From NCBI GenBank assembly GCA_964584785.1, contig CAZPBY010000001.1:74718-138717 (forward strand): 64,000 nt of DNA, given 5' to 3'. The notes under the pieces are model-generated. The model made no database searches and had not been told where the DNA came from. It saw only the letters and a list, made by a program, of their open reading frames with translations. Every line of letters begins with the position of its first letter. Position 1 is the first letter of the stretch. A program made the position numbers and the translations under genes. The stretch is from an uncultured Solibacteraceae bacterium. GTDB taxonomy: Bacteria > Acidobacteriota > Terriglobia > 20CM-2-55-15. This document shows positions 191-34,700 of this stretch, one piece after another.

Positions 191-1639
191 TCAGCCCACG
201 ATTTGGGGAATCAAATCACCGTAAACGTCCGTCAGGCGCATATCGCGGCCATTGAAGCGATAGGTGAGTTTCGTGTGATCCAGACCGAGCAAATACAAAA
301 TGGTCGCGTGCAGGTCGTGAACGGACATCACCTGTTGTTCCGCCTTGAGGCCGAATTCATCGCTCGCTCCGATCACCTGGCCGCCCTTGATTCCCGCGCC
401 GGCCATCCAGACGGTCATGGCGCCGGGATTGTGATCGCGTCCGACACCGCGCTGGGAGATCGGCATCCGTCCGAACTCGCCATGCCAGACGATCAACGTG
501 GAATCCAGCAGGCCGCGGGCTTTCAAGTCCGTCAGCAGGCCGGCAATCGGACGGTCTGTTTCCGCAGCATGCAGCGAATGGTTGGCTTTGACATCGCCAT
601 GTGCGTCCCATGTGTCCGTGTTCTGATCGCCCAGACCTCCCGAAAAAACCTGAACGAAACGCACTCCGTGCTCCACCAGCCGCCGCGCCAGCAGGCACTG
701 CCTGCCGAAGCCTTCTGTGATCTTCTCGTCCATTCCATACAATTTTCGCGTCTCGGCCGTCTCATGCTCGAGGTCTACCGCTTCGGGCGCACAACCCTGC
801 ATGCGGAATGCGAGTTCGTAAGACGATATCCGCGCCGCCAGTTCGGAATCGCCGGGATACTTTTCGAGATCGTGCTCGTTAAGTTTTGCGAGAAGGTCCA
901 GCCGCGACCGCTGCTGTTCGACCGTCAAGCCGTCGGGGGGCTTCAAGTCCATGATCGGATCGCCGCCGGAAGAGCGGAAGGCTGTACCCTGATACGCAGC
1001 CGGCATGAAACCCGAATTCCAGACGCTGACGCCGCCGATGGGCCCGCCTCGCGCATCCGGTATCACGACGAATGCGGGCAGGCCGCTGCTCTCCGAGCCG
1101 AGTCCATAAGTGATCCACGATCCGATCGAGGGATAGCCGGCGCGAATCTGTCCCGACTGCAGCTCATACGTCGATTGCACGTGATCGTTGGACCGCGCAT
1201 AGATCGAACGCAGGATCGCGAGATCGTCAACGTGCCGGGCAAGATTCGGAAAGATCTCCGAGATCTCGATTCCGCTCTGTCCGTATTTCTGGAACTGAAA
1301 TGGGCTTGGCATCAGCGGACCCGGCCAGCCCTGCCGCACGATGATGTCGCCCTTGCCCGTGAGCGGCTGTCCCGCGTACCTGGCCAGCGCGGGTTTGGGA
1401 TCGAACGTATCCACGTGGCTCGGACCGCCGCTCATGAACAGCGAAATGACCGCTTTCGCGCGCGACTTGAAATGAGGCGCTCTTGCAGCGTACGGGTTTC
1501 CGGAAAGCGATGTGCCGCTGCAGCTTTTTTCGGTGGCCGCGAGCAGCCGGTCTTTGTCGAGCAAATAAGCGAGAGCAAGGCCGCTGATGCCGCCACCGGA
1601 TTCAAACAGGAACTTACGCCGGGACCAGAAATATTTCAC
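191..1639 (-). CDS. DUF1501 family protein (sulfatase-like), probably Tat-exported
   Basis: 482-aa ORF with a GTG start and an N-terminal twin-arginine motif (SRRKFL). DUF1501-type sequence, e.g. WHGEFGRMP and GRDHNPGAMTVWMAGAGIKGG. It starts 4 nt after the stop of the upstream DUF1553 gene, so the two are an operon. Confidence 0.8.
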   Translation of the reverse strand: MKYFWSRRKFLFESGGGISGLALAYLLDKDRLLAATEKSCSGTSLSGNPYAARAPHFKSRAKAVISLFMSGGPSHVDTFDPKPALARYAGQPLTGKGDIIVRQGWPGPLMPSPFQFQKYGQSGIEISEIFPNLARHVDDLAILRSIYARSNDHVQSTYELQSGQIRAGYPSIGSWITYGLGSESSGLPAFVVIPDARGGPIGGVSVWNSGFMPAAYQGTAFRSSGGDPIMDLKPPDGLTVEQQRSRLDLLAKLNEHDLEKYPGDSELAARISSYELAFRMQGCAPEAVDLEHETAETRKLYGMDEKITEGFGRQCLLARRLVEHGVRFVQVFSGGLGDQNTDTWDAHGDVKANHSLHAAETDRPIAGLLTDLKARGLLDSTLIVWHGEFGRMPISQRGVGRDHNPGAMTVWMAGAGIKGGQVIGASDEFGLKAEQQVMSVHDLHATILYLLGLDHTKLTYRFNGRDMRLTDVYGDLIPQIVG

Positions 1640-1642
1640 GCG

Positions 1643-4294
1643 TCACCTCACATAGAGGAATTCGCTCAAATTCAACAGGACGTGAGCCAAATCGACCAGG
1701 GAGTGAGTTCCCAAAAGGTCGGTCGCCATTGCCAGTTCGGAATCGTCGGGAGACCGCGTCAACGCAATCCGGAACGCCAGCTGAATCTGCTTGACCGGAT
1801 CGTCTCCCGCTTCTTTCTTCACTCTGTCTGCAAAGATTTGCGCCTGCTTCAGAACAAAGTCGTTGTTCATGAGAGTCAGCGCCTGTGTAGGAACGGTGGA
1901 GACCGTCCGCCTGCCGGCGCTGAAATTCGGGTCCGGTGTGTCGAACACCTCGAACATCGGAAACGCCATGCCGCGTTTGCGATATACGTAGATGCTGCGC
2001 CGCCAGACGCCGCTTCCGTCGTCCTGATTTTTCCAGACGTTGTAGATCGTCGACTTGACCAGCGTTTCCGGGAGAGGCGGACGAATGGGCTTGCCGCCGA
2101 CTTCTAAATTGATGGCTCCGCTTGCCGTCAGGATGCTGTCGCGCACGATTTCCGCGTCCAGTCTCTGCGGCCGGAAGCGCCATAAATAGAGGTTCTGCGA
2201 ATCCTTTTCCATGTCCTCGGCGACGGTATACGCCGACGCCATTTGATAGGCCTCCGAAGTCATGATCATCTTGTGAAGCTGTTTGATGCTCCAGCCGCGA
2301 TTCATGAATTCGACGGCCAGCCAGTCCAGCAATTCCGGATGGGTCGGCGCTTCGCCCATCTTGCCGAAATTATCCAGCGTGGCGACGATGCCTCGTCCGA
2401 AATGATGGTGCCAGACGCGATTGACGATCACGCGCGCCGTGAGCGGGTTCTCCCGTGAAGCGAGCCACTCGGCGAGGGCCCTTCGGCGTCCGGACGTCTT
2501 TCCATCCGCCGGCGGAATCTCCGTCGGCGGATTGCCGTAAGTGGCGACGGTGATAAATCCCGGCTTCATCCGGGATCCTCTGCTGTTCGGATCGCCTCGA
2601 ACGAGAAAATACGATGCTGGAACTTCATATCGGCCGGGGCCGCTATGCAGATAAGTCCCCTCGCTTTCCTGGATTCTGCACTTCACGCAACCCACCACGT
2701 CGTCGCCGTCTCCGAGAGGCGTGAATCGATAATCGCCGTCTGTAACGATGTCCGCCTCAGGAATCGGTTGCGGCTTCATTTTTTCGAGAGCGGCGACGCG
2801 ATCCGTCAGAGCCTTCCGTTCCGCGGCGTCTTTGGGACTCAGCGCGTTGGTCAAAGCACGCGCGTTGACGTTGAGTCCGCCTTCGAGGATTTGCGTCGCT
2901 AGCAATACCTCTCCAGGCGTCCGGTCTTTTTCGGGTTTCAACACCGCTCGCTGAACGTTGTCGGGAAACTTGCGAAGCGCATCCGCCTTCAACTTTTCCC
3001 GATACGGCGCTTCGATCGTTGAAACCTGCTCCTTCAGCGGCTTGATTTGCGTGTCGATTTCCGCGATTGTCCTGGCGTACGCATCGGCTTCTGCTTTGGA
3101 CACCAGCGGCGTGGTCGTTTCCACATAGCCGAAGATGGCGGCCTGCAGCGCGTAATAGTCTTTTTGCGGAATCGGATCGAACTTGTGGTTATGGCAGCGC
3201 GCGCACTGGATGGTGAGTCCGAGGATGCCGCGCCCGATCGTCGCAAGGACGTCGTCGAGATAGTCGAGCCGGCGTTCCGGATTGTCTTTTTCTCTGAAGT
3301 GCACTCGAGGGCCGGCACGGAGGAATCCGGTGGCAATCAAGGTGTCGAGACTTTTGTTTTCGAGTTCGTCACCCGCGATCTGCTCCTTGATAAAAACATG
3401 GTACGGCTTGTCTTCATTAAAGGACCGGATGACGTAGTCGCGATACATCCAGGCATTCGGACGATCGTAATCGTGCTCGAAACCGTCGGAGTCGGCGTAG
3501 CGCGCCACATCCAGCCAGTGGCGGCCCCACCGCTCCCCGTAATGGGGCGAGGCCAGAAGCTTGTCGATCAACCGCTCCCACGCACCCGGGGCATTGTCCG
3601 CTAAGAAACTCGCAGCTTCGGAAGGGCTCGGCGGCAGGCCGATGAGATCGAGATAGGCGCGCCGCAACAGTGTCAGCCGGTCGGCGCGTGGAGCCGCGGT
3701 GATGCCTTTTTCACGGCGGGATCTTTCGAGAAAACGATCGATGGGATTCGTCAGAGTTGAGGAAACATCCGGCACTGACGCCTGCACGGGAAGCTTGAAT
3801 GCCCAGTAATTGCGCGCCTCGGGCGGGATCTCCATGTTTTCGAGCGCTGCCAGCGCCGATGCGTCCACGGATTGCGGGCGTGCCTCAACCCCGGTATCCC
3901 AGTGCGCGCCTTGATCGATCCAGCCTTTGATCGCGGCAATCTGATCCGCATTGAGCTTGCCGTCCATGGGCATGGCCGGCCGTTCCAGACCGGCAACGCG
4001 CCGGTACAGCCGGCTTTCCTCGGCATTGCCCGGAACAATCGCTGTGCCTTTTTCGCCACCCTTGAGGGCGCCTTCGAGCGTCCGCAGATCCAGCTTCGAA
4101 AGCTGCATCGCCTCGCCATGGCATTTCCAGCAGCTGTTCAGGAAAATCGGCTGGATCTCCTTCGCGAACGAAACCGGCGCCTGGGCGCCGGACAACGCGT
4201 TGGACAAGTAAAATATGCCCGCGCTGAAAACCACTCCACAAACAGACCACGCGGCGGCTGTTGGTTTGGTCACGTTTCCCTCCGCGGCTGGCAA
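1643..4294 (-). CDS. PSCyt1/DUF1549/DUF1553 protein (usual partner of DUF1501)
   Basis: 883-aa ORF with a TTG start, verified in frame. CxxCH heme motif near the N-terminus (NSCWKCHGE). DUF1549-type block CARCHNHKFDPIPQKDYY and a C-terminal DUF1553-like region. Directly followed by the DUF1501 gene. Confidence 0.8.
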   Translation of the reverse strand: MPAAEGNVTKPTAAAWSVCGVVFSAGIFYLSNALSGAQAPVSFAKEIQPIFLNSCWKCHGEAMQLSKLDLRTLEGALKGGEKGTAIVPGNAEESRLYRRVAGLERPAMPMDGKLNADQIAAIKGWIDQGAHWDTGVEARPQSVDASALAALENMEIPPEARNYWAFKLPVQASVPDVSSTLTNPIDRFLERSRREKGITAAPRADRLTLLRRAYLDLIGLPPSPSEAASFLADNAPGAWERLIDKLLASPHYGERWGRHWLDVARYADSDGFEHDYDRPNAWMYRDYVIRSFNEDKPYHVFIKEQIAGDELENKSLDTLIATGFLRAGPRVHFREKDNPERRLDYLDDVLATIGRGILGLTIQCARCHNHKFDPIPQKDYYALQAAIFGYVETTTPLVSKAEADAYARTIAEIDTQIKPLKEQVSTIEAPYREKLKADALRKFPDNVQRAVLKPEKDRTPGEVLLATQILEGGLNVNARALTNALSPKDAAERKALTDRVAALEKMKPQPIPEADIVTDGDYRFTPLGDGDDVVGCVKCRIQESEGTYLHSGPGRYEVPASYFLVRGDPNSRGSRMKPGFITVATYGNPPTEIPPADGKTSGRRRALAEWLASRENPLTARVIVNRVWHHHFGRGIVATLDNFGKMGEAPTHPELLDWLAVEFMNRGWSIKQLHKMIMTSEAYQMASAYTVAEDMEKDSQNLYLWRFRPQRLDAEIVRDSILTASGAINLEVGGKPIRPPLPETLVKSTIYNVWKNQDDGSGVWRRSIYVYRKRGMAFPMFEVFDTPDPNFSAGRRTVSTVPTQALTLMNNDFVLKQAQIFADRVKKEAGDDPVKQIQLAFRIALTRSPDDSELAMATDLLGTHSLVDLAHVLLNLSEFLYVR

Positions 4295-4380: not shown

Positions 4381-5574
4381 TCAGCGTCGTCGTGAACTGG
4401 CTGGCCTCTTTTCATCGCTGGAGAGAGTTTCAAAACCGACGGCCTCAATGTGCCGATCTAAACGCGCGCGGCGTTTGCCTGGGTAGACAAAGTACAAGCG
4501 GTCGAGGCGGAGATCCTGTTGAGCAATGCGCATGGATCGGGTGATCGCCGGCTCGGCTGTGTACTTGACTTCATACCCGACGCGCTTGCCATCCCTGATG
4601 ATCAGTAAATCGAGATCGGCCTCATTATGAGTTCCCCAGAAATAAACCTCTTCCGGACGCGCTTTTTCTTTGCGGATGACTTCTTCGAGCGCGAACCCTT
4701 CCCAGCTCGCGCCAAGTTTCGGATGATGGATCACCTCTGCCTCAGAGTGGACGCCGAGAAGCGTGTGATACAGACCGGAATCGCGAAAATAAATCTTCGG
4801 AGATTTGATCTGCCGCTTTCCGAGGTTTTCGAACCATGGCGAGAGACGCCGAATCATGAACGTGCCGGTAAGGACGTCGAGGTAATGCGCGACGGTGTGG
4901 CCATCGATCGACATGGATTTCGCCAGATCGGCGGCGTGGAAGATCTGACCATGATAATGAGCCAGCATCAGCCAGAAACGGCGAAGCGTCTCAGCGGGAA
5001 TGCGGACGCCTAACGCAGGCACGTCCCGCTCGAGGAAGTTTCGGATGTAGGCTCTTCTCCATTCGGCGCTCGCCGCTTCGGTCCTCGCGGTATAGGAGAG
5101 AGGATATCCGCCGCGGCGCCACAACCGGCGGTAGTGTTGAGTTCCGGCTTCTTCTATCGAAAAGGGAGACAACTCGATGTAGTCGATTCGTCCAGCCAGG
5201 GTTTCGGAACTCTGCCGGAGCAGTTCCGGGAAGGCGCTTCCGAGTATGAGATATTTTACGCGACGCCGCTGCTCGTCAACCAGCACCCGCAATCGCCGGA
5301 ATAGATCGGGGAGACGCTGCACTTCATCGATAACGACGAGCCCTTGGAGCGGCGATAAAACCTCGGCCGGATGCCGGAACAGGGCCAGGTCCTCGTCCCT
5401 CTCGAGATCGAAGTACGTTACGTGGCCGCCTCTCGTCTTCTGCACTCGTGCAAACTCGCCGGCAAGCGTGCTCTTCCCGACCTGACGGGGACCGAGAATT
5501 CCCACGATCGGATGCACAGCTAACGCCTTTCGGATGCGCTGAAGATACCCTGTACGGTCGATCATCGAATGCAA
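4381..5574 (-). CDS. AAA+ ATPase with DUF4143-type C-terminus (COG1373-like)
   Basis: 397-aa ORF with a TTG start and Walker A GPRQVGKST. It is a paralogue of the ORF at 23409..24575. Confidence 0.75.
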   Translation of the reverse strand: MHSMIDRTGYLQRIRKALAVHPIVGILGPRQVGKSTLAGEFARVQKTRGGHVTYFDLERDEDLALFRHPAEVLSPLQGLVVIDEVQRLPDLFRRLRVLVDEQRRRVKYLILGSAFPELLRQSSETLAGRIDYIELSPFSIEEAGTQHYRRLWRRGGYPLSYTARTEAASAEWRRAYIRNFLERDVPALGVRIPAETLRRFWLMLAHYHGQIFHAADLAKSMSIDGHTVAHYLDVLTGTFMIRRLSPWFENLGKRQIKSPKIYFRDSGLYHTLLGVHSEAEVIHHPKLGASWEGFALEEVIRKEKARPEEVYFWGTHNEADLDLLIIRDGKRVGYEVKYTAEPAITRSMRIAQQDLRLDRLYFVYPGKRRARLDRHIEAVGFETLSSDEKRPASSRRR

Positions 5575-5680: not shown

Positions 5681-6517
5681 TCAAGCCGGCTGACCGTGCT
5701 GTGCCTTGCCACCAGGGGCTGGAGACCAGTCGGTCGGCGCCATCTCCGACATGTCGGGCTCCAGTTGTAGAACATCGGCGATCTTCGTATAGCTTGAGAA
5801 CATCTGGGTCATACCGAGCACTTCCATCACGCCATGGTCACCGACACCCAGCTTGCGCATTTGATCGAGGTGAAACGGCGCGCCAAACGTGGAGTGTGTC
5901 GTCACGGAAACAGCAAAGGCGAGTGCTTCCTTCAGCCGGCGCGTCAGACGATTGTCCGAGAACGCATGCCGGGTCGCGGCCCAGAAATCGGCGACATAGC
6001 CACTGTCATGAGCCATCACTCGGAATACGGCGGGCACATGATCGATTTGATAGAAAGTTCGGATGTCGGCGAAGACGGCGGACAGCTTGGGATTCGCATC
6101 TTCGTTGGCGACCGGTTCGATCAGCATCGCGCAACCTGGAATAGCCACGGCATCGGCAAGCACATTGATGGCGTTGGTGATCCCGGTCACAAACGCGGCC
6201 TCGTACCAGTACGAATCTTCCGGCAAACCTTGCAGCTTCCCGGCTGCAACATGCGACGTCACTCAATAGTCGCAGGCATTCACGCCACTCACCACCGCCG
6301 CTATCATTTCTTTTTCAGCGCGTGTGAACTCACCCGGATCGGCCGCACGCTTCATCGCACGGCGGTGCGGACCACCAAAGGCGGAATCCCATCCCATCAC
6401 GCGCGACATCGCGGGAGCTTGTTTAAAATCGTATTTGAACCACTCCTTAATGGATTCAAACAGCTTTTGAGTTTCCTCCGGATATTCGGAAGCATCGCGA
6501 ATTCGAACGGTCGGCAT
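5681..6517 (-). CDS. AhpD-like / carboxymuconolactone-decarboxylase family protein with in-frame UGA (candidate selenocysteine, residue 85)
   Basis: ATG at 6517..6515 with GGAGG 6 nt upstream. The reading frame is continuous through TGA at 6265..6263 into the 193-aa downstream ORF. The TGA replaces the second Cys of the family redox motif N-x-C-x-Y-C-x-x-x-H (here NACDY-U-VTSH). A second, degenerate CMD-like half follows. Confidence 0.6.
6230..6249 (-). promoter_or_regulatory. candidate bacterial SECIS hairpin downstream of the in-frame UGA
   Basis: mRNA 5'-UUGCAGC CGGGAA GCUGCAA-3': a perfect 7-bp stem with a G-rich 6-nt loop. The stem starts 13 nt after the UGA. Confidence 0.45.
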
Positions 6518-7111
6518 GGCAACCTCCAGGTGAGTGAAGGATTCTACCGCCAACCTCGCAATTTCGTAGAATGATTGGACGTTGCAGGCGCAAACCCGCG
6601 GGGCAGGACGCGGGGTCAGGCGGCTACTTGAGCTAAGGCCGCTCTGATGCGAAACGCTTGACTGGAAATCTGGGACGGAGGAAAGTTTTGAAACGTTGAG
6701 TATCGTTTGGCGCTCAAAATTTTTCCTCCGTCCACATTCCTCCTGTTTAGATGACCACGTCGGGAAGGCGCCACCCTGATCCACCGTTAAATGGGTTGCC
6801 GCTCCGGTAACGCTGTCCAGCGCCCAGATCGGCGATCCGACGGAGGGTTGGAGAATGTTGACGGCGATTTGCCGCTGGTTTGGAGAGAGCCTCAGATTCT
6901 GTGTCCGCTTCCCTTCCCGGGCGACCTGTTGCAATCAAGGCGCGCGTATTTTAGCAAATCGCGCGGCAAGTCCTTTCACCCCAGAGGACACAGAGGACCT
7001 CTATCCGGAAATTTCCACAGGCGGATGATGCATAATTTTGGTTTTTACGCTGGAACGGATACCCGTCAGGTAACGAAAATGCCGGACGGCGGCGTGGAGC
7101 TTGGTGAACGG

Positions 7112-8052: not shown

Positions 8053-9195
8053 TCATTTGCTCTCGAGCGTTGCCGGCAGTCCTTGACCGCTGATCCAGGT
8101 GTCCTTGTCGCGGATGATCGCCTGTGGCGGCAGGGTATCCGATCGCGGCGCGATATTCGCGGCGCGTTTCACGGCAGTGCCGACAGCCATGAATTCGAGA
8201 AGACTTCCCATTTCGTGAATGTGCGTGCGTATACCCACAACATTGTCCGCGCCGATGCCGGCTGCTTCGTCGCGGATGAGTCCGATGGCATGTTCGCGGG
8301 CATCGTAAATCAGCGAGGTGAGTTCCTGGATTTCGCCTTTGGCGAGGCTCTTGAATGCAGCCGTCAATCCGCCGACCACACCTAACGCATAAACCGCCGT
8401 GCCGAGGACCAGCTTGAGCGGCGCGTAGCCCATCGCTGCAAGGTTCCAGGTTTCTTCGGCAGTCATATCTGAAGTCACAATCGAACCGGTGGACGGCGCG
8501 GCCGGCAGACCGGGATGGTGACATGCGGTGCCCATCATCAACATTTCGTGGACACCCTGAAACGGAAGCACGGTCGTCTCGATGCCGATGACGGCGTTTG
8601 CGCCGTAACGTTTTGCGTCGTCGACGATGCGTTCCAAGGCCACATGCCGCGTGTGATTGAAGACGTCTGAAAATTCCTTAACCTCGCCGCGTCCGAGGGA
8701 CTTGAGCGTACCGAGAATGCCTCCGCCGACGCCGACCGAATACGCAATATTTCCGAAAGCGAAATGTCGTGGTGAGTAACCGGCGTCGAGCATGCAATAG
8801 AGTTCCTGCGCGTTGTGCGCGGTCGAAAAACTCAACTTCTCGATGGGTCCGCCTGCGACAGGAGATCGCGCGGCACCGTGAAGCGTCGAGCCAACCGAGA
8901 GAAATTCGATATTGCCGTGGAAATGACGCAGATCCGAGGTCACCCCGCTGATCCCCACTCCGCCGTGGCTTTCGGCTTCCTTCACCATGCGCTGAAACGC
9001 CTGCTGCCGGCCTTCATGGATGATTTCGGTAACCTGCGAAACCTCACCACCGATGATGTTCCGAAGTCCCGCGCCCAGCGATCCAACGAAACCCAGCGAG
9101 TGCACCGAATTTCCAACAACCAGCTCGCCCGCCGTCATTCCTTTGAGGTGCAGGCAATACATTTCGTTTCCCGAGAGTCCTGTCGCAATCGGCAT
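8053..9195 (-). CDS. protein with three tandem YbjQ/DUF74 (UPF0145) domains
   Basis: 380 aa. Three ~110-aa repeats, each with YbjQ-like blocks (GANAVIGIETTV, GADNVVGIRT, GGVGISGVTSD). Strong SD (AAGGAGAAGG) before the ATG at 9195. Confidence 0.65.
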   Translation of the reverse strand: MPIATGLSGNEMYCLHLKGMTAGELVVGNSVHSLGFVGSLGAGLRNIIGGEVSQVTEIIHEGRQQAFQRMVKEAESHGGVGISGVTSDLRHFHGNIEFLSVGSTLHGAARSPVAGGPIEKLSFSTAHNAQELYCMLDAGYSPRHFAFGNIAYSVGVGGGILGTLKSLGRGEVKEFSDVFNHTRHVALERIVDDAKRYGANAVIGIETTVLPFQGVHEMLMMGTACHHPGLPAAPSTGSIVTSDMTAEETWNLAAMGYAPLKLVLGTAVYALGVVGGLTAAFKSLAKGEIQELTSLIYDAREHAIGLIRDEAAGIGADNVVGIRTHIHEMGSLLEFMAVGTAVKRAANIAPRSDTLPPQAIIRDKDTWISGQGLPATLESK

Positions 9196-9301: not shown

Positions 9302-12148
9302 TCAGCGCGATGGTTTCGGAACCCAATTCAGGATGACTGTAATCGGAGAACTCAGAGAATCGCCTACTGTTGAATTGAGCATGAAAGATTGACCGTCCGG
9401 TAAGACAACGTACTGCTGCCGAAAGACGTTGACCGCGGTGCTGCCGATATTCGTCAGGAAGAGCGGAACCGGAGTACCGGGTTCCAACTCTTCGCCGTTA
9501 CGCAGGGATTGGATCGGAACCGCCATCATTCGATCATCCGGAGCAATGTAGAACAATTCCTTACCGTTCGGGTTCCAGCGCACCTGAGTGCCCCCGTCTG
9601 CGGTGACTGGCGTATCCGATCCCGAACCTGGAAATCTCCGCAGGTAGATTTCATTGCGGCCGGTCTTGTCGGATTGATAGGCGATCCATTTCCCATCCGG
9701 AGAGAACTGCGCGAGCTGTTCGTTGAATTCAGTTTTAATGACCTCTCGCGGAGTTTTGTCGCCTTCCATCGGGAGAACCCAAAGGTCTATGCCAGTTTGC
9801 GAAGTCAGGATGCCGTATAGCAGGAATCGCCCATCGCGTGACCAGTCCATCGGAAACTTCGGCTCTGCCGTGGACAGGAGAGTACTCTCGCCTTCCCCAG
9901 TTGGGGCGCTGAGTAGTTTCGAGTGCAAGTTGATGGCCCCACCAGCGCCTTCGTCTTCGGCGAACACGATGCGTAAGCCGTCCGGAGACCAAAGCGGATA
10001 GAGGTCGTCTCGCGGACTGACGGTGATTCGATCCCAAAGATGGCGCACGCGGTCATAGGACCAGATATCCATGTTCTCATTGACGAGCCTGAAAACACCC
10101 ACGTGACGGCCGTCCATGGAAAGGCCCGGACCGAGGGCAGCCGAGTCGGGATAGGTGACACGTTCGAGTTCTTTGCCTGTTCGATCGACCCAGACGAGCT
10201 GCCGTAGATTGCTGTCCGGTGACGGCGTTCGATATGCGATGGGCCCTGCCTGCGACGCCGACAGATAAGTTCCTCCGTTGACACCCTGCGCAATTGGAAA
10301 TGGCTCTCCCGTGACCTCCAGGCGATCTGCATCGAACGCCTGCGCGAACAGTGTTTGCTGGCGAACGAACAAGAGATGTCCAGTGGCGCTATACACGGCG
10401 GCTGAATCCGCATCGAACAAGCGTTTGGCATCCGGCTTATCAAGCTGGCCAACATACACGCCGCGAGCTTCAGCATTTCCACCGACGAAAAAAACAAAAT
10501 GACGGCCATCCGGCAGGAACTGGGGAAAGACGTGAGACCGATGAGTGGATTCGAGCCGCGTTACCGGCATCGGCTCTCCGCCCGCCGCTGGAATTCTAAG
10601 CAGAGGAACGCCAGGAGTCTTCGAAAACAGGATCACGTCGTCCGTGTTCCAGGTAAGCCCTTGCGGCAAGCCCGCGACCTTGAGGATGGTCGTCGCCACT
10701 CCCTTGTCGAGGTCGAAACGCTTGAGCTTGGAATCCGCATTGAAGACAATCGACCGGCTATTGGGTGACCAGCTCGGCGCCCCACCTCCCGCCGTTCCCG
10801 GACGAGGACGGGCAGACGTGGAGTCCAACGAACTCAGCCACAAGTGCACCTGCCCCTCAAATGGGGCATTGAAGACAATACTTCGCCCATCCGGCGAAAG
10901 GGCAATAGAACGGCTGCGTGCCGGTGGCGTATTGATCTCGAGACGGACCTCCGCCGCGGCAGCACGAGGTCTCGAGGCCAAAACACCGAAGACAACGGCT
11001 GCAATCGTTACCAGAGCTAATACGGATACCCAGGCAATGCGTTCGCCACGGCGCGAATCCGATTTCGCGGTTTCAAAGCGGTCCGCTGTATTCACTCGCG
11101 AATCGGCGACCTCGAGCTGCACATCATGGAAGTCGCGCAGCCGCAATGCCTGGTCTTTCTGCAAACTGCGCCGCAGCAAACGGCGGATACTCTCCGGCGT
11201 CGAGGCAGGCAATCGGCTCCAATCCGGCTCGCTCTTTAAAATCACGGCAATTATTTCGCCCACCGTCTCACCTGGAAAGGCGCACTGTCCAGTGAGCATT
11301 TCATAGAGCACGCAGCCAAATGCCCACACGTCCGAACTGCGATCGGCCTCCTTTCCGCTCGCCTGTTCCGGTGACATGTATTGCGCGGTTCCCAAAATCA
11401 TTCCGGGTATGGTGGGAGCCATTGTCGGCGAATTTGAAAGCTCGGAAACCGTGCCACTCGCCGCACGCGTCTTCGCCAGGCCAAAGTCGAGGACTTTAAC
11501 GGTGCCCTTCTCCGTAACTTTGATGTTCGCGGGCTTCAGGTCGCGATGAATGATCCCTTGTTCGTGCGCCGCTTCGAGTGCCTGAGCAATCTGACGCGAA
11601 ATCGATAGCGCCTCCTCGAGTGGAATGGGTTGCCGCGCGATGCGTTCCGCCAGCGTCGGTCCTTCAATCAACTCGAGCACGAGTGCGTGGCGCCCCTCAC
11701 CCTGTTCCAGGCCATAGATCGCGCCAATGTTGGGATGACTCAACGAAGCGAGAACGTGCGCTTCGCTGGTAAAACGGGCGAGCCGGTCGGCGTCCAGAAT
11801 AAAGCTCTGCGGCATGACTTTGACGGCGACATCGCGCCGGAGCTTCAGATCATGCGCGCGATACACTTCCCCCATGCCGCCTCTACCAATTAAAGAGTGA
11901 ACCTGGTAATGCGCGATCGTCCGGCCGATCAGCTCCGATGAATCGTTTCCAACGAGATTGGCTGCGATATTGGATAAGTCCCTGTCGAGGACGTTGTCTG
12001 CGATTCGCTGAAGTAATAAAGACTCCACCTCACGCCGCAATTCCGCATCGGCACATGCTTGCGTCAGAAAAGAAGAACGTTCAGGCGCGGCCAGCTCAGC
12101 GGCCGCCTGATAGAGTTTTTCAACTTCTTTCCAGCGCTCCGGCGTCAT
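9302..12148 (-). CDS. Ser/Thr protein kinase with C-terminal TolB-like (PD40) beta-propeller
   Basis: Hanks kinase motifs (GRGGMGEVYRA, VAVK, HRDLKPANI, DFGLAK). A transmembrane segment. PD40-type repeats (FSPDGKWIAYQSD...). ATG chosen at 12148 (MTPERWKEVEKLY); the track ORF extends to 12340. Confidence 0.85.
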   Translation of the reverse strand: MTPERWKEVEKLYQAAAELAAPERSSFLTQACADAELRREVESLLLQRIADNVLDRDLSNIAANLVGNDSSELIGRTIAHYQVHSLIGRGGMGEVYRAHDLKLRRDVAVKVMPQSFILDADRLARFTSEAHVLASLSHPNIGAIYGLEQGEGRHALVLELIEGPTLAERIARQPIPLEEALSISRQIAQALEAAHEQGIIHRDLKPANIKVTEKGTVKVLDFGLAKTRAASGTVSELSNSPTMAPTIPGMILGTAQYMSPEQASGKEADRSSDVWAFGCVLYEMLTGQCAFPGETVGEIIAVILKSEPDWSRLPASTPESIRRLLRRSLQKDQALRLRDFHDVQLEVADSRVNTADRFETAKSDSRRGERIAWVSVLALVTIAAVVFGVLASRPRAAAAEVRLEINTPPARSRSIALSPDGRSIVFNAPFEGQVHLWLSSLDSTSARPRPGTAGGGAPSWSPNSRSIVFNADSKLKRFDLDKGVATTILKVAGLPQGLTWNTDDVILFSKTPGVPLLRIPAAGGEPMPVTRLESTHRSHVFPQFLPDGRHFVFFVGGNAEARGVYVGQLDKPDAKRLFDADSAAVYSATGHLLFVRQQTLFAQAFDADRLEVTGEPFPIAQGVNGGTYLSASQAGPIAYRTPSPDSNLRQLVWVDRTGKELERVTYPDSAALGPGLSMDGRHVGVFRLVNENMDIWSYDRVRHLWDRITVSPRDDLYPLWSPDGLRIVFAEDEGAGGAINLHSKLLSAPTGEGESTLLSTAEPKFPMDWSRDGRFLLYGILTSQTGIDLWVLPMEGDKTPREVIKTEFNEQLAQFSPDGKWIAYQSDKTGRNEIYLRRFPGSGSDTPVTADGGTQVRWNPNGKELFYIAPDDRMMAVPIQSLRNGEELEPGTPVPLFLTNIGSTAVNVFRQQYVVLPDGQSFMLNSTVGDSLSSPITVILNWVPKPSR

Positions 12149-12276
12149 CGTTTTCGCGTCATTGTCGCACACAGTTTCAACTGCTTCCCGTGGTATGTTC
12201 AGTCCATGAGCGGGTGGCGTCAAACACCATGCGCCTGTTGGCGCACGCGGCGACTGGACACGGAAAATGAGGAGAA

Positions 12277-12963
12277 ATGACGACCAACGAAGTAATCCAG
12301 AAACTGAAATCGATGGGGACTGAACAGACTCGCAAGACATACCGGCGGCATGGCGTTCAGGGTGAATTGTTTGGTGTGAGCTACGCCGGCTACTCTGCGT
12401 TAAAGAAGCAGATCAGAGTCGATGCGGACCTTGCGGGGCAATTGTGGAAATCCGGCAATCACGACGCGCGAATTCTAGCCACGATGATTGTGGACCCGGC
12501 CGAAGGCCTCCGGCTGCTCGACGATTGGGTGAAGGATCTGGATAGCTATCCAATCGTGGACGCGCTTGCAACGTTTGCAGCTCAAACGGCTGTCGATGCT
12601 AAAAAAGTCGAGAAGTGGATGAACAGCAAAGACGAGTGGACGGGCAGTTTTGGTTGGACGCTGTTCGCCAGGCTCGCGCGAGAGGATGCGCATTTTTCAG
12701 ACGCGTCGCTCGCGAGCTATCTCGACGTCATCGAACGCAACATCCATCGGGCAACGAACCGCGTGCGCCATTCCATGAACTCGGGCCTGATTTCAATCGG
12801 CGCTCGCAATAAGGACCTGCAAAAGAAGGCGCTCGCTGTTGCGGCCCGCATCGGCAAAGTTGAAGTCGATCATGGCGACACCGACTGCAAAACACCCGAC
12901 GCTGCGCAATACATCCTGAAGATCGCCGCTCGCAACGCCAGGTCCAGGAGCGCCAAAGCCTGA
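12277..12963 (+). CDS. DNA alkylation repair enzyme (AlkD/AlkC-like HEAT-repeat family)
   Basis: 228-aa ORF that resembles the PF08713-type DNA alkylation repair protein family in size and composition. It is divergent from the kinase gene. Confidence 0.65.
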   Translation: MTTNEVIQKLKSMGTEQTRKTYRRHGVQGELFGVSYAGYSALKKQIRVDADLAGQLWKSGNHDARILATMIVDPAEGLRLLDDWVKDLDSYPIVDALATFAAQTAVDAKKVEKWMNSKDEWTGSFGWTLFARLAREDAHFSDASLASYLDVIERNIHRATNRVRHSMNSGLISIGARNKDLQKKALAVAARIGKVEVDHGDTDCKTPDAAQYILKIAARNARSRSAKA

Positions 12964-17772: not shown

Positions 17773-20397
<2,625 letters not shown>

Positions 20398-20628: not shown

Positions 20629-23298
20629 TTATTTCTTCTGGGTAGCAGCGAGCCAGTTGACGACGACCGCGATGGGCGGAACGGCAGATGGTTCGGAGGC
20701 CGGCGGTTGCAGCACCAGGAATCTCTCACCATCCGGGGTGACATCATACTTGCCGTTGGTAAAATCCGAACCGGTGTTCCGCGTTTGAAACAGCGGCCTT
20801 GGAATGCCCGTTTCAATGGTGGTTCCGTTCGGCTTGACATCGACTGCCATCAACTTTCCATCTGGAGCGAGATAGAATATTTCCTTTCCATCCTTCCGCC
20901 AACGAGGTATTCCGCCTCCCGCATTTGATACCTGACGTCGGTCCGTCATGGACGGAAAGGCGGCGACCCATACTTGGGTCGAACCCGACTCATCGGAGTT
21001 GTAGGCTATCCAGCGGACGTCATACGACAGATTGAACTGCCTGCTTGTCGAAGGACCACCAACCAGCCGCACGGGTGTTGGATCACCGGTCAACGGGATA
21101 GCGGATACCGATTGATCTTCCGAACTTCGGTAAATGATGTAACGTCCATCCTTTGACCAGTCATCGATGGTTCCACTGTCCTTAAAGAGCGACGTCTCCT
21201 CACTTCCTCCTACATTCTTTCTATAAACGTGGTTGGAGCCTTTGCGGTTGGACGCGAATACAACTTCTTGTCCATTGGGTGACCAGACTGGATCAATGGA
21301 GCTGGAGGGTCCGAAGGTGAAGCGCGATAGGATGCCGGTCGATAGCTCTGCGAGCCAGAGCTCGTAACTGCCGATCCTCGGATCGAAACGGTCGAAAACC
21401 GCTCGCTTACCGTCGAGTGAAAGGTGGACATTATTGAAAAAATCGGGGTCGCCAATTGTTCCGAGCGGTCGCCCTGAGCGGTCGAACCAAGCCAATTGAG
21501 CGCCCCGAGCGTTTTCGGGGCCTCCATAAGCAAGAATGCCCGTACTCGACGTAGATACGCTGGCGAGCCAACCATTCTGGCCCACATCTTCTGCTACAAG
21601 AAACGCCTCTCCTCGAGTCTCCAGGTCGGCTAAGTCAAATGGCTGTGCCATCAAGGAATTTCCTCGCACCCACAGCAGATGACCGTCGCTATAGATTGTG
21701 CGAGTGTTCACATTCAGGACCCGCTTTCGGTCCCTCGAATCGAGAGAGCCAACGTAGATTCCACTTACTTCGGCCTCCGAGCTGACGACCCCATATAGAA
21801 AATGCCGGCCATCTGGTAGGAAAAAGGGGAATATGTGCCGAGCTTCATGTGAATTCAGCAATGTTACCGGTGCGCGATCTCCCCCTCTGGCGGAGAGGCT
21901 GTAGATACCCGTGTCCGAGCCGCCGCAGAGAAGGACGCCATCGCGATTCCACGTGCCGAACCCACACGGTGTGTTACTGACCAGTTCAGGAGGGCCGCCG
22001 CCAACCGCGATCTTCTTGAATTTTCCACCGGCGTTAAAACCAATAAACTTGCTGTCCGTCGACCAGGACGGCGCACCTCCGCCATCCGTGCCTTGCAAAA
22101 TTCGCGCGTCTAGTGAATCAATCCCACGAACCCATAGCTTCGATGTAGGTTCGTCTATTGCACTGAAAACAAGGTACCGGCCATCGGGAGACAGTGCAAA
22201 CTCCGGAACACCCGAACTCTGAAAGACCTTCTGAGGTGGTGGAGGAATCGTGAAACGAACAACGGTTGTGTTGCGAGTCGGCGGCGAACGCCAATACGCA
22301 ATCGCAACGCTGGCTGCGGCGACGACAAGCGCGATGCCAGCCACGAACCACGCCCAACGTTCACGAGTCTGTCGAGGCTGTTGGATAACACCCGCGGCAG
22401 CGTTCGACGCCTCTTCGATCTCGATTCGTGCGTCAGCAATGTCGTGAAGACGGCGGTTTGGATCCTTCTGAAGTGCGCGTCGCAGGAGCGTCCGAATCGA
22501 AAGTGGTGTTTCGGCGGGGAGCCTCGTCCAGTCAGGCTCTTCGGCGACGATCTGCGCAAGGACATCGGTTGTTGTCTCGCCGTCGAATGTGGGGCGTCCG
22601 CTTAACATCTCGTACAACACGCAGCCCCAGGCCCAGATGTCCGTGCGCTTATCGATGTCTTTGCCGCGCGCCTGCTCCGGCGACATGTAGCCTACGGTGC
22701 CGAGGATGAGGTTGTCTTCGGTCGAGACAACCGCCTTCGTCACCATGTCCGATGACGCAATCTTGGACTCGAAAATCTTTGCCAACCCGAAGTCGAGGAC
22801 CTTCACCGTGCCGTCTCGCGTGATCTTGATGTTGGCGGGTTTCAGATCGCGATGAACGACTCCCTTCGCGTGAGCCGCTTCCAGTGCCTCAGCTATCTGG
22901 CGAGCGATCGCCAACGCTTCTTCTACCGGCACACGGCCACGAGCAATACGCTCGGCGAGCGCGTCGCCATCGATGAACTCCAGGGCCAGACCACAGAGCC
23001 CATCGCTTTCTTCGAGACCGTAGATGGCTGCGATTCGCGGATGATTCAAGGAGGCAAGAAGCTGCGCTTCGCGATGAAATCGGGCGACCCGTTCGCGATC
23101 CTGAGCGAACGCTTCGGGCAGCACTTTGATCGCAACGTCACGATTCAGTTTCGAGTCGCGCGCCCGATAGACTTCAGCCATTCCACCGGCCCCGATGGAC
23201 GCGATGATTTCGTACGGTCCGAGCCGTGTTCCGGCAGCCAGCCGCCAGGACGACTGAATCCCACTGACCATTTGCTGCCGGTCTTCAGGCCGATCCAT
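20629..23298 (-). CDS. Ser/Thr protein kinase with TolB-like beta-propeller (paralogue 3)
   Basis: GAGGMAEVYRARD, HRDLKPANIKI, DFGLAK. A transmembrane segment. PD40 repeats. Alternative start at 23271. Confidence 0.85.
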   Translation of the reverse strand: MDRPEDRQQMVSGIQSSWRLAAGTRLGPYEIIASIGAGGMAEVYRARDSKLNRDVAIKVLPEAFAQDRERVARFHREAQLLASLNHPRIAAIYGLEESDGLCGLALEFIDGDALAERIARGRVPVEEALAIARQIAEALEAAHAKGVVHRDLKPANIKITRDGTVKVLDFGLAKIFESKIASSDMVTKAVVSTEDNLILGTVGYMSPEQARGKDIDKRTDIWAWGCVLYEMLSGRPTFDGETTTDVLAQIVAEEPDWTRLPAETPLSIRTLLRRALQKDPNRRLHDIADARIEIEEASNAAAGVIQQPRQTRERWAWFVAGIALVVAAASVAIAYWRSPPTRNTTVVRFTIPPPPQKVFQSSGVPEFALSPDGRYLVFSAIDEPTSKLWVRGIDSLDARILQGTDGGGAPSWSTDSKFIGFNAGGKFKKIAVGGGPPELVSNTPCGFGTWNRDGVLLCGGSDTGIYSLSARGGDRAPVTLLNSHEARHIFPFFLPDGRHFLYGVVSSEAEVSGIYVGSLDSRDRKRVLNVNTRTIYSDGHLLWVRGNSLMAQPFDLADLETRGEAFLVAEDVGQNGWLASVSTSSTGILAYGGPENARGAQLAWFDRSGRPLGTIGDPDFFNNVHLSLDGKRAVFDRFDPRIGSYELWLAELSTGILSRFTFGPSSSIDPVWSPNGQEVVFASNRKGSNHVYRKNVGGSEETSLFKDSGTIDDWSKDGRYIIYRSSEDQSVSAIPLTGDPTPVRLVGGPSTSRQFNLSYDVRWIAYNSDESGSTQVWVAAFPSMTDRRQVSNAGGGIPRWRKDGKEIFYLAPDGKLMAVDVKPNGTTIETGIPRPLFQTRNTGSDFTNGKYDVTPDGERFLVLQPPASEPSAVPPIAVVVNWLAATQKK

Positions 23299-23408: not shown

Positions 23409-24575
23409 CTAGGATTCGATCAGCCTGAAGAGTTCGTCGACCGCCAGTACTTTCATATTCCCAGCGGACACGGTTGTGGAGGGTGCGCCTCGCACGGCCC
23501 GGTGAACGATGAACCCATCGACCTGATAGCCCTTGCCGGCCTCGCGGAGCCGCCGATATGGACCTGCCATGGCAGGCGTCACGGTTCGGGTTGCTTTCGC
23601 TTCGATGGCCATCAGTCTCCGCCGGGAACCGGGAACAACAAAATCGATCTCGAGTCCCTGTTGATCGCGAAAAAAGTACAGCGTTCTGGCCTTTCCAAGC
23701 GAAAGCTGCAGCTTCACGATCTCAGACGCAACGAAGCCTTCAAAGACAGGGCCGAGAAACGGCGATCCGTTGAGCATCGATTGAGATTCGATTCCGAGAA
23801 GGTGGCACGCCAGGCCCGAATCCGCAAAATACAACTTTGGCGATTTGATGAGTCGCTTCCCAAAGTTCTCGTAAAACGGAGGAATCAGGAAAATTTGTGA
23901 TGTCACTTCAAGGATCCCGAGCCATTCCGAAATCGTCGGAACAGAAACTCCGAGCGGGGCTGCGAGTTCCGTCCGATTGAGAATTTGCCCGCATCTCGTG
24001 GCGAGCAGCGACAGGAACCGCCGAAATGTCGCGAGGTCGCGAATGGAGCTAATGGCGCGGACATCCCGTTCCAGGTAGGTCTGCACGTATGAACGAAACC
24101 AGATGTCGGATGTTGATGGCCGCGCCAAAACCTCCGGAAACCCACCGCGAAGAAGCGATACCTTTGGTGATTCCTTCAATGAGAGCGGCATCAACTGAAA
24201 CACCGCGGCACGTCCGGCCATGGACTCGCTAACGCCGCGCATTAACGGAGCATCCTGCGAACCGGTAAGCAGCCACTGTCCTTTCTTTTCCGGATGGCGG
24301 TCAATACGCGTCCGGATGTAATTGAGAACCTCCGGCACGTTTTGAATTTCGTCGAAAATCGCCGGAACGGAAGTCTCTTCAACAAACGTTCGCGGATCGT
24401 AGCTGAGGCGCGCGACAACATCCGGATCCTCGAGGAGGTAATACGCCGCGTTGGGAAACATCCGGCGTAGCAGAGTGGTCTTTCCGGAGCGGCGCGGGCC
24501 CGTCAAGATCACCGCCGAAAAAGATTTGACGGCACGCGCCAGGGGATTGCTCAAGAGCCGCGGGATGAATTTCAT
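23409..24575 (-). CDS. AAA+ ATPase with DUF4143-type C-terminus (paralogue of 4381..5574)
   Basis: Walker A GPRRSGKTT. Same architecture as the first copy. Confidence 0.8.
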   Translation of the reverse strand: MKFIPRLLSNPLARAVKSFSAVILTGPRRSGKTTLLRRMFPNAAYYLLEDPDVVARLSYDPRTFVEETSVPAIFDEIQNVPEVLNYIRTRIDRHPEKKGQWLLTGSQDAPLMRGVSESMAGRAAVFQLMPLSLKESPKVSLLRGGFPEVLARPSTSDIWFRSYVQTYLERDVRAISSIRDLATFRRFLSLLATRCGQILNRTELAAPLGVSVPTISEWLGILEVTSQIFLIPPFYENFGKRLIKSPKLYFADSGLACHLLGIESQSMLNGSPFLGPVFEGFVASEIVKLQLSLGKARTLYFFRDQQGLEIDFVVPGSRRRLMAIEAKATRTVTPAMAGPYRRLREAGKGYQVDGFIVHRAVRGAPSTTVSAGNMKVLAVDELFRLIES

Positions 24576-31580: not shown

Positions 31581-31787
31581 AGAGGCAAAGCCGGGATCGA
31601 GCGTCACGGCTTACCCGAATGTGACAAGGCCTGCTCGAGATCCACGTTTGTCCCTAGCGCATTTAAGATCGTCGACGGCACAGGACGGAAGAACCGAGCA
31701 GTTGAAGGCGGGAACGTACACAGGACGTCTGTTTGCCGGATGGGCCGCTCGTTTCCGAGTATCGACTTCAGATCCAAAGGTAGTAAG

Positions 31788-34700
31788 ATGCGCCGCATGT
31801 TCGCACAACTTTTGGCTGTGTTGGGTTTGTTGTTACCCGGCGCGGCTTTTGGGCAGGACGTCCCGCTCGAGACTGGACACGTTGTCCAGCGCGAGATTAA
31901 GGGAGGCGCGACACACACCTATCCGTTGCACCTCGATCGGGATCAGTACATTCACGTCATTGCCGATCAGGACGACATCGATGTGTCGATGACACTCCGC
32001 GCGCCCGATGGCAAAACGTTGGTGGATGTAAACCGGCTCGCAGAAGGCCCTGAGGACCTCTTCTGGATTGCCGCAGAGGCCGGCAACTACGCCGTAGCGA
32101 TTCAGGCAGAGAAAGCCGTCGAGTCGGGTCACTACAGAATTGCACTGGAAAGCCGGCTCGTTCCTGCTGCCGAGGACCGAAATCGCTTCACCGCGTTTCG
32201 CACGACCGTTGTGGAAGCGAACGCGCTGATGGCGCAAGGGACTGCGGATTCGCTCAACAAAGCCGCCACCAAATATGAAGAGGCGCTGGCGCTTTGGCGC
32301 GAAGTGAAGGATCTGCGGTGGAATGGCTATACCGCCCATCAACTGGGGGCGCTTTACGAACAACTCAGCCAGCTGCCACGCGCCAGGGATCTGTTGCTCG
32401 AGGCGTTGTCGATGCGGCGGACGACCAGCGAGCGCAGAGGAATATCTTCAACGCTGAACTCGCTCGGTTACGTGTATTACAGGCTTGGAGATTCACGCCT
32501 CGCCTTGCAGCACTACGCCGAAGCCATCGATTTGCGTCGTGAATTGCACGATCGACGGGGTGAAGCAATATCACTGAATAACGAAGGATTGGCTTATGAG
32601 CGCCTAGGCGAAAGAGAGAAGGCGCTCGAGGCGTATCAGGGTTCACTGAAGATTCGCCGCGAGGTTGGTGATACTCGAGGCGAGGCGGTCACGTTAAGCA
32701 ACCTCGCCATTACCTACAGGTACATGGGAGACCTTCAAAAATCGCTGGATTTGCTCGTCGAGTCGTTACCTCTCCGCCGCAGCAGCGGTGATCGCCGTGG
32801 CGAGGGAAGCACGCTCAACGGTATCGCTCAGGCCTATAGCCAGCTGGGTGATTACCGAAAGGCTGAAGAATACTGGATTCAGGCGGAGAAGATCTTCGAA
32901 GAAACCGGTGAGATCAACGGGCGGGCCAGTGTCCTGGAAGGACTTGGACGAGTCAGCCAGTCACTGAACAATTACAGGGATTCGCAGAATTATTACGAGC
33001 GGTCGCTGGTCCTCAGACGGCAAAGCGGAAGCAAGCAGGGCGAGCTCAACGGATTGGTCGGTCTGTGTTACACATTTCAAAATCTGTCGGACTTCAGCAA
33101 AGCTCGTGATAATGCCGAGCACGCGCTGACGCTTGCGACGGAGATTGAGGACCGCTTCGGGATCTCGGAAGCTCACAGCTGCCTCGGTGAGTCTCTCTAC
33201 CGATTGGGCGACCTCACTAACGCGCTGGAGCACCTCCAGGCCGCTGCGACGCTGACTCGAACAATCGGCAATGACTCCGCTCTTGGCGTCGCATTAGCCC
33301 TGATGGCCATGGTGGAGGCCGACATGGGCAGGTTGCCGGAAGCCCTTTCGCGAGTCCAGGAAGCCCTTATCCTGAAGGAGGCGACGCGGGCCGGCGTAGC
33401 GAATCCAGACCTTCGAGCCTCCTACCGCTCATTGCAGGCGGACTTGTATGCCGTCGAAACGGATGTGCTCATGCGGATGCACGCGGCGAATCCGCAAGGC
33501 GGCTTCGCCGCCCGCGCCCTCGATGCGAATGAGCATTGGCGAGCTCGCAGCCTGATCGAGATGGTTGCCGAATCCGGCACGGATTTGCGACAGGAATTAA
33601 CAGACGCACAGCGCAAACGTGAAGACGGAATTGTGACGCGCATCACTTCAATCCAACGAGAACTGTTTCGCACCGATGTCTCGACGGCGCGTAAGAAGGA
33701 ACTCCAACAGCAATTGGCTGCCGCCGAGCGCGATCTCGATTTGTATCAGGTTGAATTGAGATCGGCCGGAAGCCGGTACGCAGCGGTACACTACCCGCCG
33801 CCGTTGCAAACGGACCGGCTACGAACCGAGTTGCTCGGACCAAACGCGGCGCTGATCGAGTACGCGCTGGGAGAGAAACGATCATACGCCTGGGTGCTCA
33901 CACCGGAAGGGTTGAGCAGTGCCACATTACCGGGCCGGCAGGAGATTGAGCGTGAAGTCTCCGCGTACCGGAAGGAACTTTCAGAGCGTGTTTCGAGCCT
34001 CACGGTGGGGCAATCACTGGCGCGCCTGAACTCACAAAGCAGACAGCTATACAGGACGCTGTTGTGGCCTTTCGAAAGGACGCTGTCGACAAGCCATTCG
34101 CTGATCGTCGTGACGGATGGAATCCTTGCGTATCTGCCGTTCGAAACATTAATGAATGTCGACCAATCTCCGCTCATCGAACACTTCTCCGTCTCGTATG
34201 CTCCATCTGGCACGACCCTGGCTGTTTTGAAGTCACGCAAAGACCAGCAAAGGCCTTTCAAGACCCTGCTCGCGTTCGCGGATCCGAAGGTTGTCACAAC
34301 AGGAAAAGCAGAGCTGAATAGTGCCGCCGAACGCGGCCTGGACCTGACTCCTCTTCCCAATTCGAGATCGGAAGTGACCGCCATCGGTTCCTTATATAAA
34401 GCGGGACAGACCCGGATCTACATGGGTGCTGAAGCAACGGAGCAGACGGTAAAGGCGGAAGACCTGAGCGGCTACCGGTTTCTCCATTTCGCCACACATG
34501 GTTACTTCGATGAAGAGCGACCTTCGCGGTCCGGCATTGTGCTCGTTCCCGGCCCCGACAATAGCCAGGACGGAATACTGCAGGTTGGAGAGATCATGCA
34601 TCTCCATTTGAATGCAGACCTGGTGACGCTGTCCGCGTGCCAGACCGGGCTGGGGCAGGTGTTGGCCGGCGAGGGCGTCATGGGTATGACGCGCGCCTTC

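Follow-up and report, generated by a model that had tools for sequence, protein, structure and literature searches.

Does the TGA codon at 6265..6263, on the minus strand of a 64,000-nucleotide stretch of DNA (contig CAZPBY010000001.1, hereafter the window) from an uncultured Solibacteraceae bacterium, break an AhpD-like gene, or does it encode selenocysteine (Sec)? A first-pass annotation, made from the sequence with no database searches, had proposed the latter, and this selenoprotein reading is supported by the computational analysis described here. We hold with high confidence that the locus is a functional selenoprotein gene encoding a two-domain, 278-residue thiol-selenol oxidoreductase of the AhpD/carboxymuconolactone decarboxylase (CMD) type, in which the UGA at 6265..6263 is decoded as Sec.

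Translated from 6517 to 5681, the minus strand amounts to 278 codons interrupted by only one stop, TGA 6265..6263, and the local translation reads SGVNACDY before this stop and VTSH after it. The two mechanically derived open reading frames (ORFs) noticed at first pass, 6263..6934 and 5681..6262 (minus), do share one frame and are divided by this TGA alone; reading through it yields the AhpD-like/CMD protein of 278 amino acids that had been described. The complete coding sequence (5681..6517, minus) extends from ATG 6517..6515 through the Sec-UGA to a terminal TGA at 5683..5681, and this extent is backed by tblastn matches over residues 1 to approximately 270 in 80 genomes. The minus-strand sequence reads cctGGAGGttgccATG. 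The Shine–Dalgarno (SD) motif GGAGG was correctly placed ahead of the start (6527..6523, minus), but its spacer before the ATG measures 5 nt and not the 6 nt given earlier; an SD-like motif precedes the start in 72/81 orthologues. A scan for promoters and terminators returned nothing on the strand of the AhpD-like gene. When the 440 in-frame TGAs of the window were screened by coding potential, 6265..6263 alone was flanked on either side by long coding-like sequence, with the exception of an ordinary gene junction at 1645. Public gene calls (NCBI, Logan) split the gene into an 84-amino-acid "hypothetical protein" and a 169-amino-acid CMD fragment, and one of the proteins that cluster with the N-terminal fragment at 90% identity is annotated "Acidobacteria bacterium".

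Profile searches were run on the read-through product with Cys in place of the stop. Membership in the CMD/AhpD superfamily is indicated by two profiles that exceed their curated cutoffs, namely, CMD (PF02627; 58.9 bits vs. a cutoff of 23, in two stretches) and the AhpD core domain (TIGR00778; 49.2 bits vs. 27.8). The peroxidase-related enzyme profile (TIGR01926) scores 65.2 bits, under its cutoff of 81.8, with only positions 3–89 of 178 matched; NF041238 (AhpD_rel_CFYUT) scores 29.3 bits, under 175, and TIGR00777, which describes the true AhpC-reducing AhpD, scores 17.9 bits, under 191.95. The closest solved structures are 2oyo, 2ouw, 2pfx, 6k40, 3c1l, and 2prr, which comprise structural-genomics "peroxidase-related" and AhpD-like proteins. 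The protein is composed of two domains. The N-terminal catalytic CMD/AhpD domain covers approximately residues 1–125 (6143..6517, minus), as defined by PF02627, TIGR00778, and the PDB alignments, while the C-terminal, second CMD-like domain covers approximately residues 135–255 (5753..6115, minus), as defined by the second Pfam CMD stretch and by alignment to 2ouw 15–56 and 2oyo 123–188. In the second domain, S209, G212, and H216, all invariant, replace Cys, Sec, and His; because these residues occupy the equivalent positions, the repeat is catalytically degenerate and redox-inactive, and its role is presumably structural.

The redox and proton-relay motif of the N-terminal domain is E70-x11-C82-x-Y84-U85-x3-H89 (6251..6310, minus), and all five positions are invariant in the 81 aligned sequences. 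The proton relay is known to consist of Glu36/Cys48/Tyr50/Cys51/His55 in Pseudomonas aeruginosa PA0269 and of Glu118/Cys130/His132/Cys133/His137 in Mycobacterium tuberculosis AhpD (PMC3141380). The spacing of the window motif is identical to that of both relays, and it conforms to the pattern Glu-x11-Cys-x-(His/Tyr)-Cys-x3-His when U85 is counted for Cys. The UGA had been assigned to the second Cys of the family redox motif, and this assignment holds, as the position is Cys in the alignments to 2oyo, 2ouw, and 2pfx and also in P0187, a 257-amino-acid Cys form with which the read-through product is collinear in BLASTP over residues 1–254 (E = 3e-24). U85 of the window protein and the Cys opposite it in P0187 constitute a classical Sec/Cys pair.

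The in-frame UGA (6263..6265, minus; U85) is TGA in 81/81 aligned genes and aligns with Cys in distant homologues. Orthologues were sought by a genome scan of one genome per GTDB species with the protein patterns FSSYTKIAD and VG[IV]TNA[LMI]NV; because both patterns lie in the C-terminal half, the scan is unbiased toward TGA. The orthologue set is made up of 80 of the 104 tblastn-confirmed genome hits, which gives 81 sequences together with the window gene. The window protein is 59–68% identical to the 80 orthologues, and the lowest pairwise identity among the 81 sequences is 58%. This codon is TGA throughout the 80 orthologues and TGC or TGT in none of them (0/80). The loci are labelled as Methylomirabilota/Rokubacteria, Acidobacteriota, Dehalococcoidia, Chloroflexia, and a few others, and the taxonomic breadth that is robust comprises Methylomirabilota, Acidobacteriota, and Chloroflexota. 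Four loci (L071, L016, L017, and L028) are labelled Nitrosotalea (an archaeon), Deferrimicrobiaceae, Acidoferrum, and Limnocylindria, and their gene order is that of Methylomirabilota: SLT/LysM, AhpD-like gene, cytochrome, tRNA-Sec, and DUF3105. Because the synteny of these oddly labelled loci is identical to that of the Methylomirabilota loci, several contigs of soil metagenome-assembled genomes are probably mis-binned, and the breadth in phyla may be overstated.

A search of 5.8 billion protein clusters gave 1,097 matches, of which the best 120 are all 169–238 residues long and contain the post-UGA part only; many of these begin at the codon right after the TGA (V/M-x-A-H-T-A-A-G-K-L-Q-G), and no full-length form, a Cys form included, was found among the best 120 of the 1,097. 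Similarly, when the C-terminal 193 residues were compared by HMMER with 1.84 billion representatives, the close relatives were fragments only, and full-length two-domain proteins appeared only at 24–33% identity, with CxYC at the site in P0187, P0194, P0214, P0220, and P0261. In the alignment to these Cys-containing homologues, a check that had been recommended at first pass, U85 lies opposite Cys.

Some of the database proteins are unusual in form. P0168, a full-length relative of 252 amino acids (33% identity), carries Gly where Sec would stand (ACQYG-TRSRTAAG), and its TAAGxxxG segment is degraded; a change of TGA to GGA in a decayed or error-rich copy may account for this. In P0008, P0039, P0046, and P0095 (source "src"), the N-terminal part is fused straight to the C-terminal part and the UGA region is skipped; these gene models look like products of splicing around the stop, and as such would be an annotation artefact of the Sec codon. 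Some orthologues (P0030, P0055, P0061, P0118, and L010:3292-3954) end in a C-terminal tail of 40–50 residues in which Ser, Arg, Lys, and Pro abound (...GTSRAKISKGERRVASRASR..SPAPAPVSRRAAKKPV), and the window protein is without such a tail.

Downstream of the UGA, 13 nt (6262..6250) lead to a SECIS-like (selenocysteine insertion sequence) hairpin at 6230..6249 (minus), with a 5′ arm UUGCAGC (6249..6243), a 6-nt loop CGGGAA (6242..6237), and a 3′ arm GCUGCAA (6236..6230) that closes a 7-bp stem. The bacterial SECIS model, whose criteria were taken as quoted in one source, has an apical loop of 3–9 nt, a stem of 4–16 bp, a G in the first two loop positions, a distance of 16–37 nt from UGA to loop, and a minimum free energy (MFE) of −7.5 kcal/mol or lower (PMC13188914). 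The hairpin lies within every one of these published limits: its loop is 6 nt, its upper stem is 7 bp, G stands at loop position 2 and is followed by another G, the loop is 20 nt from the UGA, and its energy is −9.9 kcal/mol.

The conservation of the hairpin was assessed in an alignment of the UGA and the following 51 nt (79 distinct sequences), in which columns 18–35 are essentially invariant. RNAalifold gives the 7-bp hairpin as the sole consensus structure, and 98.9% of the helix pair cells are standard pairs. At pair 21–32, 75 sequences have A-U and four have G-U. The basal pair 17–36 is C-G in 72, mismatched in six, and U-A in the window only; there, both strands of the helix have changed in a compensatory way from C-G to U-A, and on the 5′ side this replaces Thr90 ACU by Val GUU, a nonsynonymous change. 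Because the hairpin is nearly invariant, the argument for a constraint on the RNA rests on frozen synonymous sites and not on compensatory pairs. Codons 90–95 (ACT GCA GCC GGG AAG CTG) have a codon entropy of 0–0.28, whereas the 84 other conserved four- to six-fold degenerate columns have a mean of 1.28 and a minimum of 0.46 (Mann–Whitney p = 9e-5); ACT and GCA are rare elsewhere in these GC-rich genes. Two synonymous positions inside the loop (C24 and G27 of the alignment) are invariant too, suggesting that the loop sequence itself may be read. Cys homologues do not conserve the peptide [T/V]-A-A-G-K-L-Q, which fits a constraint imposed by the RNA, and the hairpin may dictate this peptide in the window clade. 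The 18-nt hairpin core is present in exactly one copy in each of 83 loci at a fixed offset, and a 16-nt core with at most two mismatches occurs once in the window vs. 0.09 times expected.

Several results weigh against reading the UGA as Sec and have to be set beside this conservation. The first-pass annotation had described a 7-bp hairpin 13 nt 3′ of the UGA, and although that hairpin is present and conserved, its single-sequence folding is not significant (z-scores of −1.3 and −1.7). The MFE structure of isolated segments of 51–71 nt is a competing helix and not the hairpin; this helix (CCGG.AAGCU/GGUUU.GCCGG; 6243..6220, minus) overlaps the 3′ half of the hairpin. Covariation is minimal, with one double change, a level reached by 41/500 shuffles. 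As had been stated at first pass, the genes of Sec insertion do not lie in the window: no tRNA gene and no Rfam match were found in its 64 kb, and the Pfam screen of its 27 ORFs detected no SelA, SelB, or SelD domain. The searched part of the genome is this 64-kb window, and we infer the Sec competence of the organism. On the side of the fold, the competing helix is specific to the window and absent from orthologues; in a 54-nt context, an extended stem containing the hairpin is isoenergetic with its competitor (−17.1 vs. −17.2 kcal/mol), and the stem makes up approximately 0.67 of the ensemble. It is the comparison of orthologues, and not single-sequence folding, that places the hairpin beyond chance.

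On the side of the machinery, ARAGORN was run on the 80 orthologous loci. In 13/80 species it detected a tRNA-Sec that follows the orthologue at a distance of approximately 1.35 kb and shares its strand, and it detected no other tRNA in any locus. RF01852 confirms all 13 at 69–71 bits, against a gathering score of 47. These tRNAs are canonical: the anticodon is UCA, the discriminator base is G73, CCA is encoded, and the variable arm is long. One is located at L010:5169-5266 (plus), and the others are in L013, L016, L017, L019, L024, L028, L030, L031, L043, L054, L056, and L071. Between the AhpD-like gene and the tRNA-Sec lies a multihaem cytochrome gene on the opposite strand, and the tRNA-Sec is followed by a DUF3105 gene; selA, selB, and selD are absent from the flanks of the 13 loci. 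The carriers of the AhpD-like gene, therefore, include organisms that encode tRNA-Sec. Selenoprotein-rich Methylomirabilota and Dehalococcoidia, as well as selenoproteins in Acidobacteria, have been reported (PMC13188914; PMC13326102; PMC1794560).

The same tRNAs bear on the alternative that survives best, in which the UGA is recoded to a residue other than Sec, either to Cys by a tRNA-Sec-like Cys tRNA with SelB or to Cys under selenium limitation. Insertion of Cys by such a tRNA together with SelB has been reported in some bacteria. Sequence cannot tell which residue goes in at a SECIS-dependent UGA, and the Sec machinery of this genome was not seen within the 64-kb window. However, with its G73, its long variable arm, and its full match to RF01852, the tRNA beside the orthologues bears the marks of a canonical serine-charged tRNA-Sec and not of the U73 Cys type. 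That all 80 species retain TGA and none has TGC or TGT likewise argues against simple Cys. We consider this alternative very unlikely.

Another alternative is that a Cys codon mutated to TGA and left a dead gene. Such a nonsense-mutated pseudogene would agree with the two fragments given by public gene callers and with the Sec machinery not found in the window. Besides a genome devoid of Sec machinery, the first-pass annotation had itself named what would point to it, namely, close relatives with TGC or TGT at this codon and a hairpin that is not conserved. The relatives were examined for both, and the outcome was the reverse, since orthologues of other species share the same TGA without exception (80/80) and the hairpin is kept with its synonymous sites frozen. 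The gene has no further stops or frameshifts. Between the window gene and its orthologues, the ratio of nonsynonymous to synonymous change (pN/pS) is 0.21 for residues 1–84, upstream of the UGA, and 0.38 for residues 98–270, downstream of it; both sides are under purifying selection, and because both halves are so constrained, a pseudogene is excluded for practical purposes and is given a very low probability.

It is likewise very improbable that the locus encodes two polypeptides of 84 and 193 amino acids that assemble after termination at the UGA and restart at the adjoining GTG (TGAGTG). The codon after the TGA is GTG in the window gene and in 45/81 genes overall, and gene callers begin many relatives there, but in the other 36/81 it is GTC, GTA, or ACN, which are unable to initiate, and an SD-like motif precedes the post-UGA codon in 0/81 genes, as compared with 72/81 at the true ATG. 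With non-start codons in 36/81 genes and no SD-like motif, a restart is not a conserved design. A split at this point would, moreover, fall inside the active-site helix of CxxC-x3-H and take away the second redox residue, a Cys in the distant Cys-form homologues as well as in the solved structures, and it would leave unexplained a frozen hairpin at SECIS distance. A genome-wide reassignment of TGA to a sense codon (Trp or Gly) has a negligible probability because TGA is the ordinary terminator of 36/81 genes (the window gene and 35/80 orthologues) and also ends ordinary neighbours such as the DUF1553 gene at 1645, while the position in question aligns with Cys and not with Trp or Gly.

Taking the locus as a selenoprotein gene, a mechanism can be proposed. 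At the UGA, the hairpin 13 nt downstream, with its loop starting 20 nt after the codon, would act as a bacterial SECIS and recruit SelB-GTP with Sec-tRNA(Sec), so that selenium would be incorporated as Sec in the window organism and the remaining 193 codons would be translated. The resulting C82-x-x-U85 centre would lie at a helix start, set in the proton relay of E70, Y84, and H89. In M. tuberculosis AhpD, the second Cys is the nucleophile. By analogy, Sec85 would be the attacking nucleophile and Cys82 the resolving residue in a selenenylsulfide cycle that may reduce peroxide or an oxidised partner of the peroxiredoxin type as its substrate. This proposed chemistry is extrapolated from Cys enzymes that have been characterised (PMC3141380) and from the way in which Sec generally stands in for a catalytic Cys.

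The gene neighbourhood hints at a possible electron donor or redox partner. In 21/81 loci (L058:1486-2160, plus, and 20 other loci), though not in the window, the AhpD-like gene is immediately preceded on its own strand by a homologue of the catalytic beta-chain of ferredoxin:thioredoxin reductase (PF02943, 84 bits). No universal operon partner was found, the best real neighbours being present in at most 24/81 loci.

Other genes of the window are described here for orientation. Two paralogous AAA_14/DUF4143 ATPase genes are located at 4381..5574 and 23409..24575 (both minus), the former directly downstream of the selenoprotein gene. At 191..4294 (minus), a PSCyt1/PSCyt2/PSD1 (DUF1549/DUF1553) gene and a DUF1501 gene share one frame with the single TGA at 1645 between them; as a candidate recoding site, this TGA was rejected since the two genes are well-known partners and the codon between them is an ordinary stop. 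Three large Ser/Thr protein kinase genes with C-terminal PD40 (TolB-like beta-propeller) repeats are found at 9302..12340, 17773..20397, and 20629..23298 (all minus). A CHAT-TPR protein is encoded at 31740..34898, one with three YbjQ_1 stretches at 8053..9195, and the window also encodes a duplicated MacB/FtsX permease. The PSCyt/DUF1553 and DUF1501 pair, the MacB/FtsX permease, and the kinase-PD40 proteins are in keeping with an acidobacterium, and by this gene content and the annotated cluster member the window organism is probably one.

AhpD-like proteins had been put forward at first pass as a known bacterial selenoprotein family, and the literature agrees. Selenoproteins with CxxU of the AhpD-like (COG2128/TIGR01926) and CMD (PF02627) types have been described from the Sargasso Sea since 2005 (PMC1088965); in the Global Ocean Sampling (GOS) study of 2008, the family was named "AhpD-like 1" and counted in hundreds together with AhpD-like 2 (PMC2398784); and both types with CxxU are listed in reviews of 2026 and in BSepDB (PMC13188914). 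The family and the mechanism are, thus, already known, the window gene adds to an established selenoprotein family, and general knowledge of selenoproteins is unchanged. The reading nevertheless corrects a recurrent error of public annotation, in which the gene is split into an 84-amino-acid "hypothetical protein" and a truncated "carboxymuconolactone decarboxylase family protein" in the window genome and its relatives, and it implies that an acidobacterial organism decodes UGA as Sec, a trait worth recording.

The clade to which the window gene belongs has traits of its own: a two-domain architecture, no Cys orthologue above approximately 33% identity, a nucleotide-invariant SECIS, no full-length entry for its close members in the protein collections searched, and linkage to selC in one lineage of the Methylomirabilota, where the AhpD-like gene lies beside it. 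With no close Cys orthologues and with a frozen SECIS, it offers a clean training or test case for selenoprotein finders in soil phyla and for what SelB reads. A literature search, with BSepDB itself outside its scope, found no publication on this specific subfamily. It is conceivable, though we regard it as rather doubtful, that the two-domain proteins of 270–280 residues form a distinct, obligately Sec-dependent, and uncatalogued AhpD-like subfamily whose SECIS is fixed in sequence across at least three phyla. If so, they would provide a natural system for sequence-specific SelB–SECIS recognition and for the way in which a selenoprotein gene and its SECIS spread horizontally as a unit.

Compared with the AhpD-like family (COG2128/TIGR01926), the window protein shares the CMD/AhpD fold, Sec in place of the second Cys of CxxC, and a SECIS hairpin in the coding region directly 3′ of the UGA. 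Its N-terminal 90 residues match positions 3–89 of the TIGR01926 profile and also 2oyo and 2pfx ("peroxidase-related protein"). It differs in its score (65.2 under 81.8), in being approximately 90 residues longer, and in an insert that forms the second, Cys-less CMD repeat. In GOS AhpD-like 1, there are approximately three times more Cys than Sec members, whereas in the window clade there is no Cys form above approximately 33% identity.

The CMD selenoprotein, or AhpD-like 2 (PF02627), is defined by a PF02627 match and CxxU, and the window protein has both; this is a comparison by definition and not with a reference sequence, and the papers describe neither a two-domain architecture nor an invariant hairpin for that type. 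AhpD-like 2 is commoner in non-marine samples (PMC2398784), which matches the orthologues, as these come from soil and groundwater. NF041238 ("hypothetical protein 1" from the Sargasso Sea) has C-F-Y-U-T where the window clade has C-x-Y-U-[VT], with a local match over residues 61–91; it differs in its length of 357 residues, in a motif near residue 230, and in its overall architecture. M. tuberculosis AhpD and PA0269 show the same relay spacing, and the middle Tyr is as in PA0269, but the window protein has Sec for the second Cys, and the domain order and the duplication differ; no ahpC is adjacent to the AhpD-like gene in the window.

The hairpin, for its part, resembles the bSECISearch model and the SECIS of Escherichia coli fdhF, as it lies in frame directly after the UGA and is capped by a small apical loop that contains G. 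Bacterial SECIS elements usually share structure only (PMC13188914), whereas the hairpin of the window type is near-invariant in sequence across several phyla, the free positions of the loop included.

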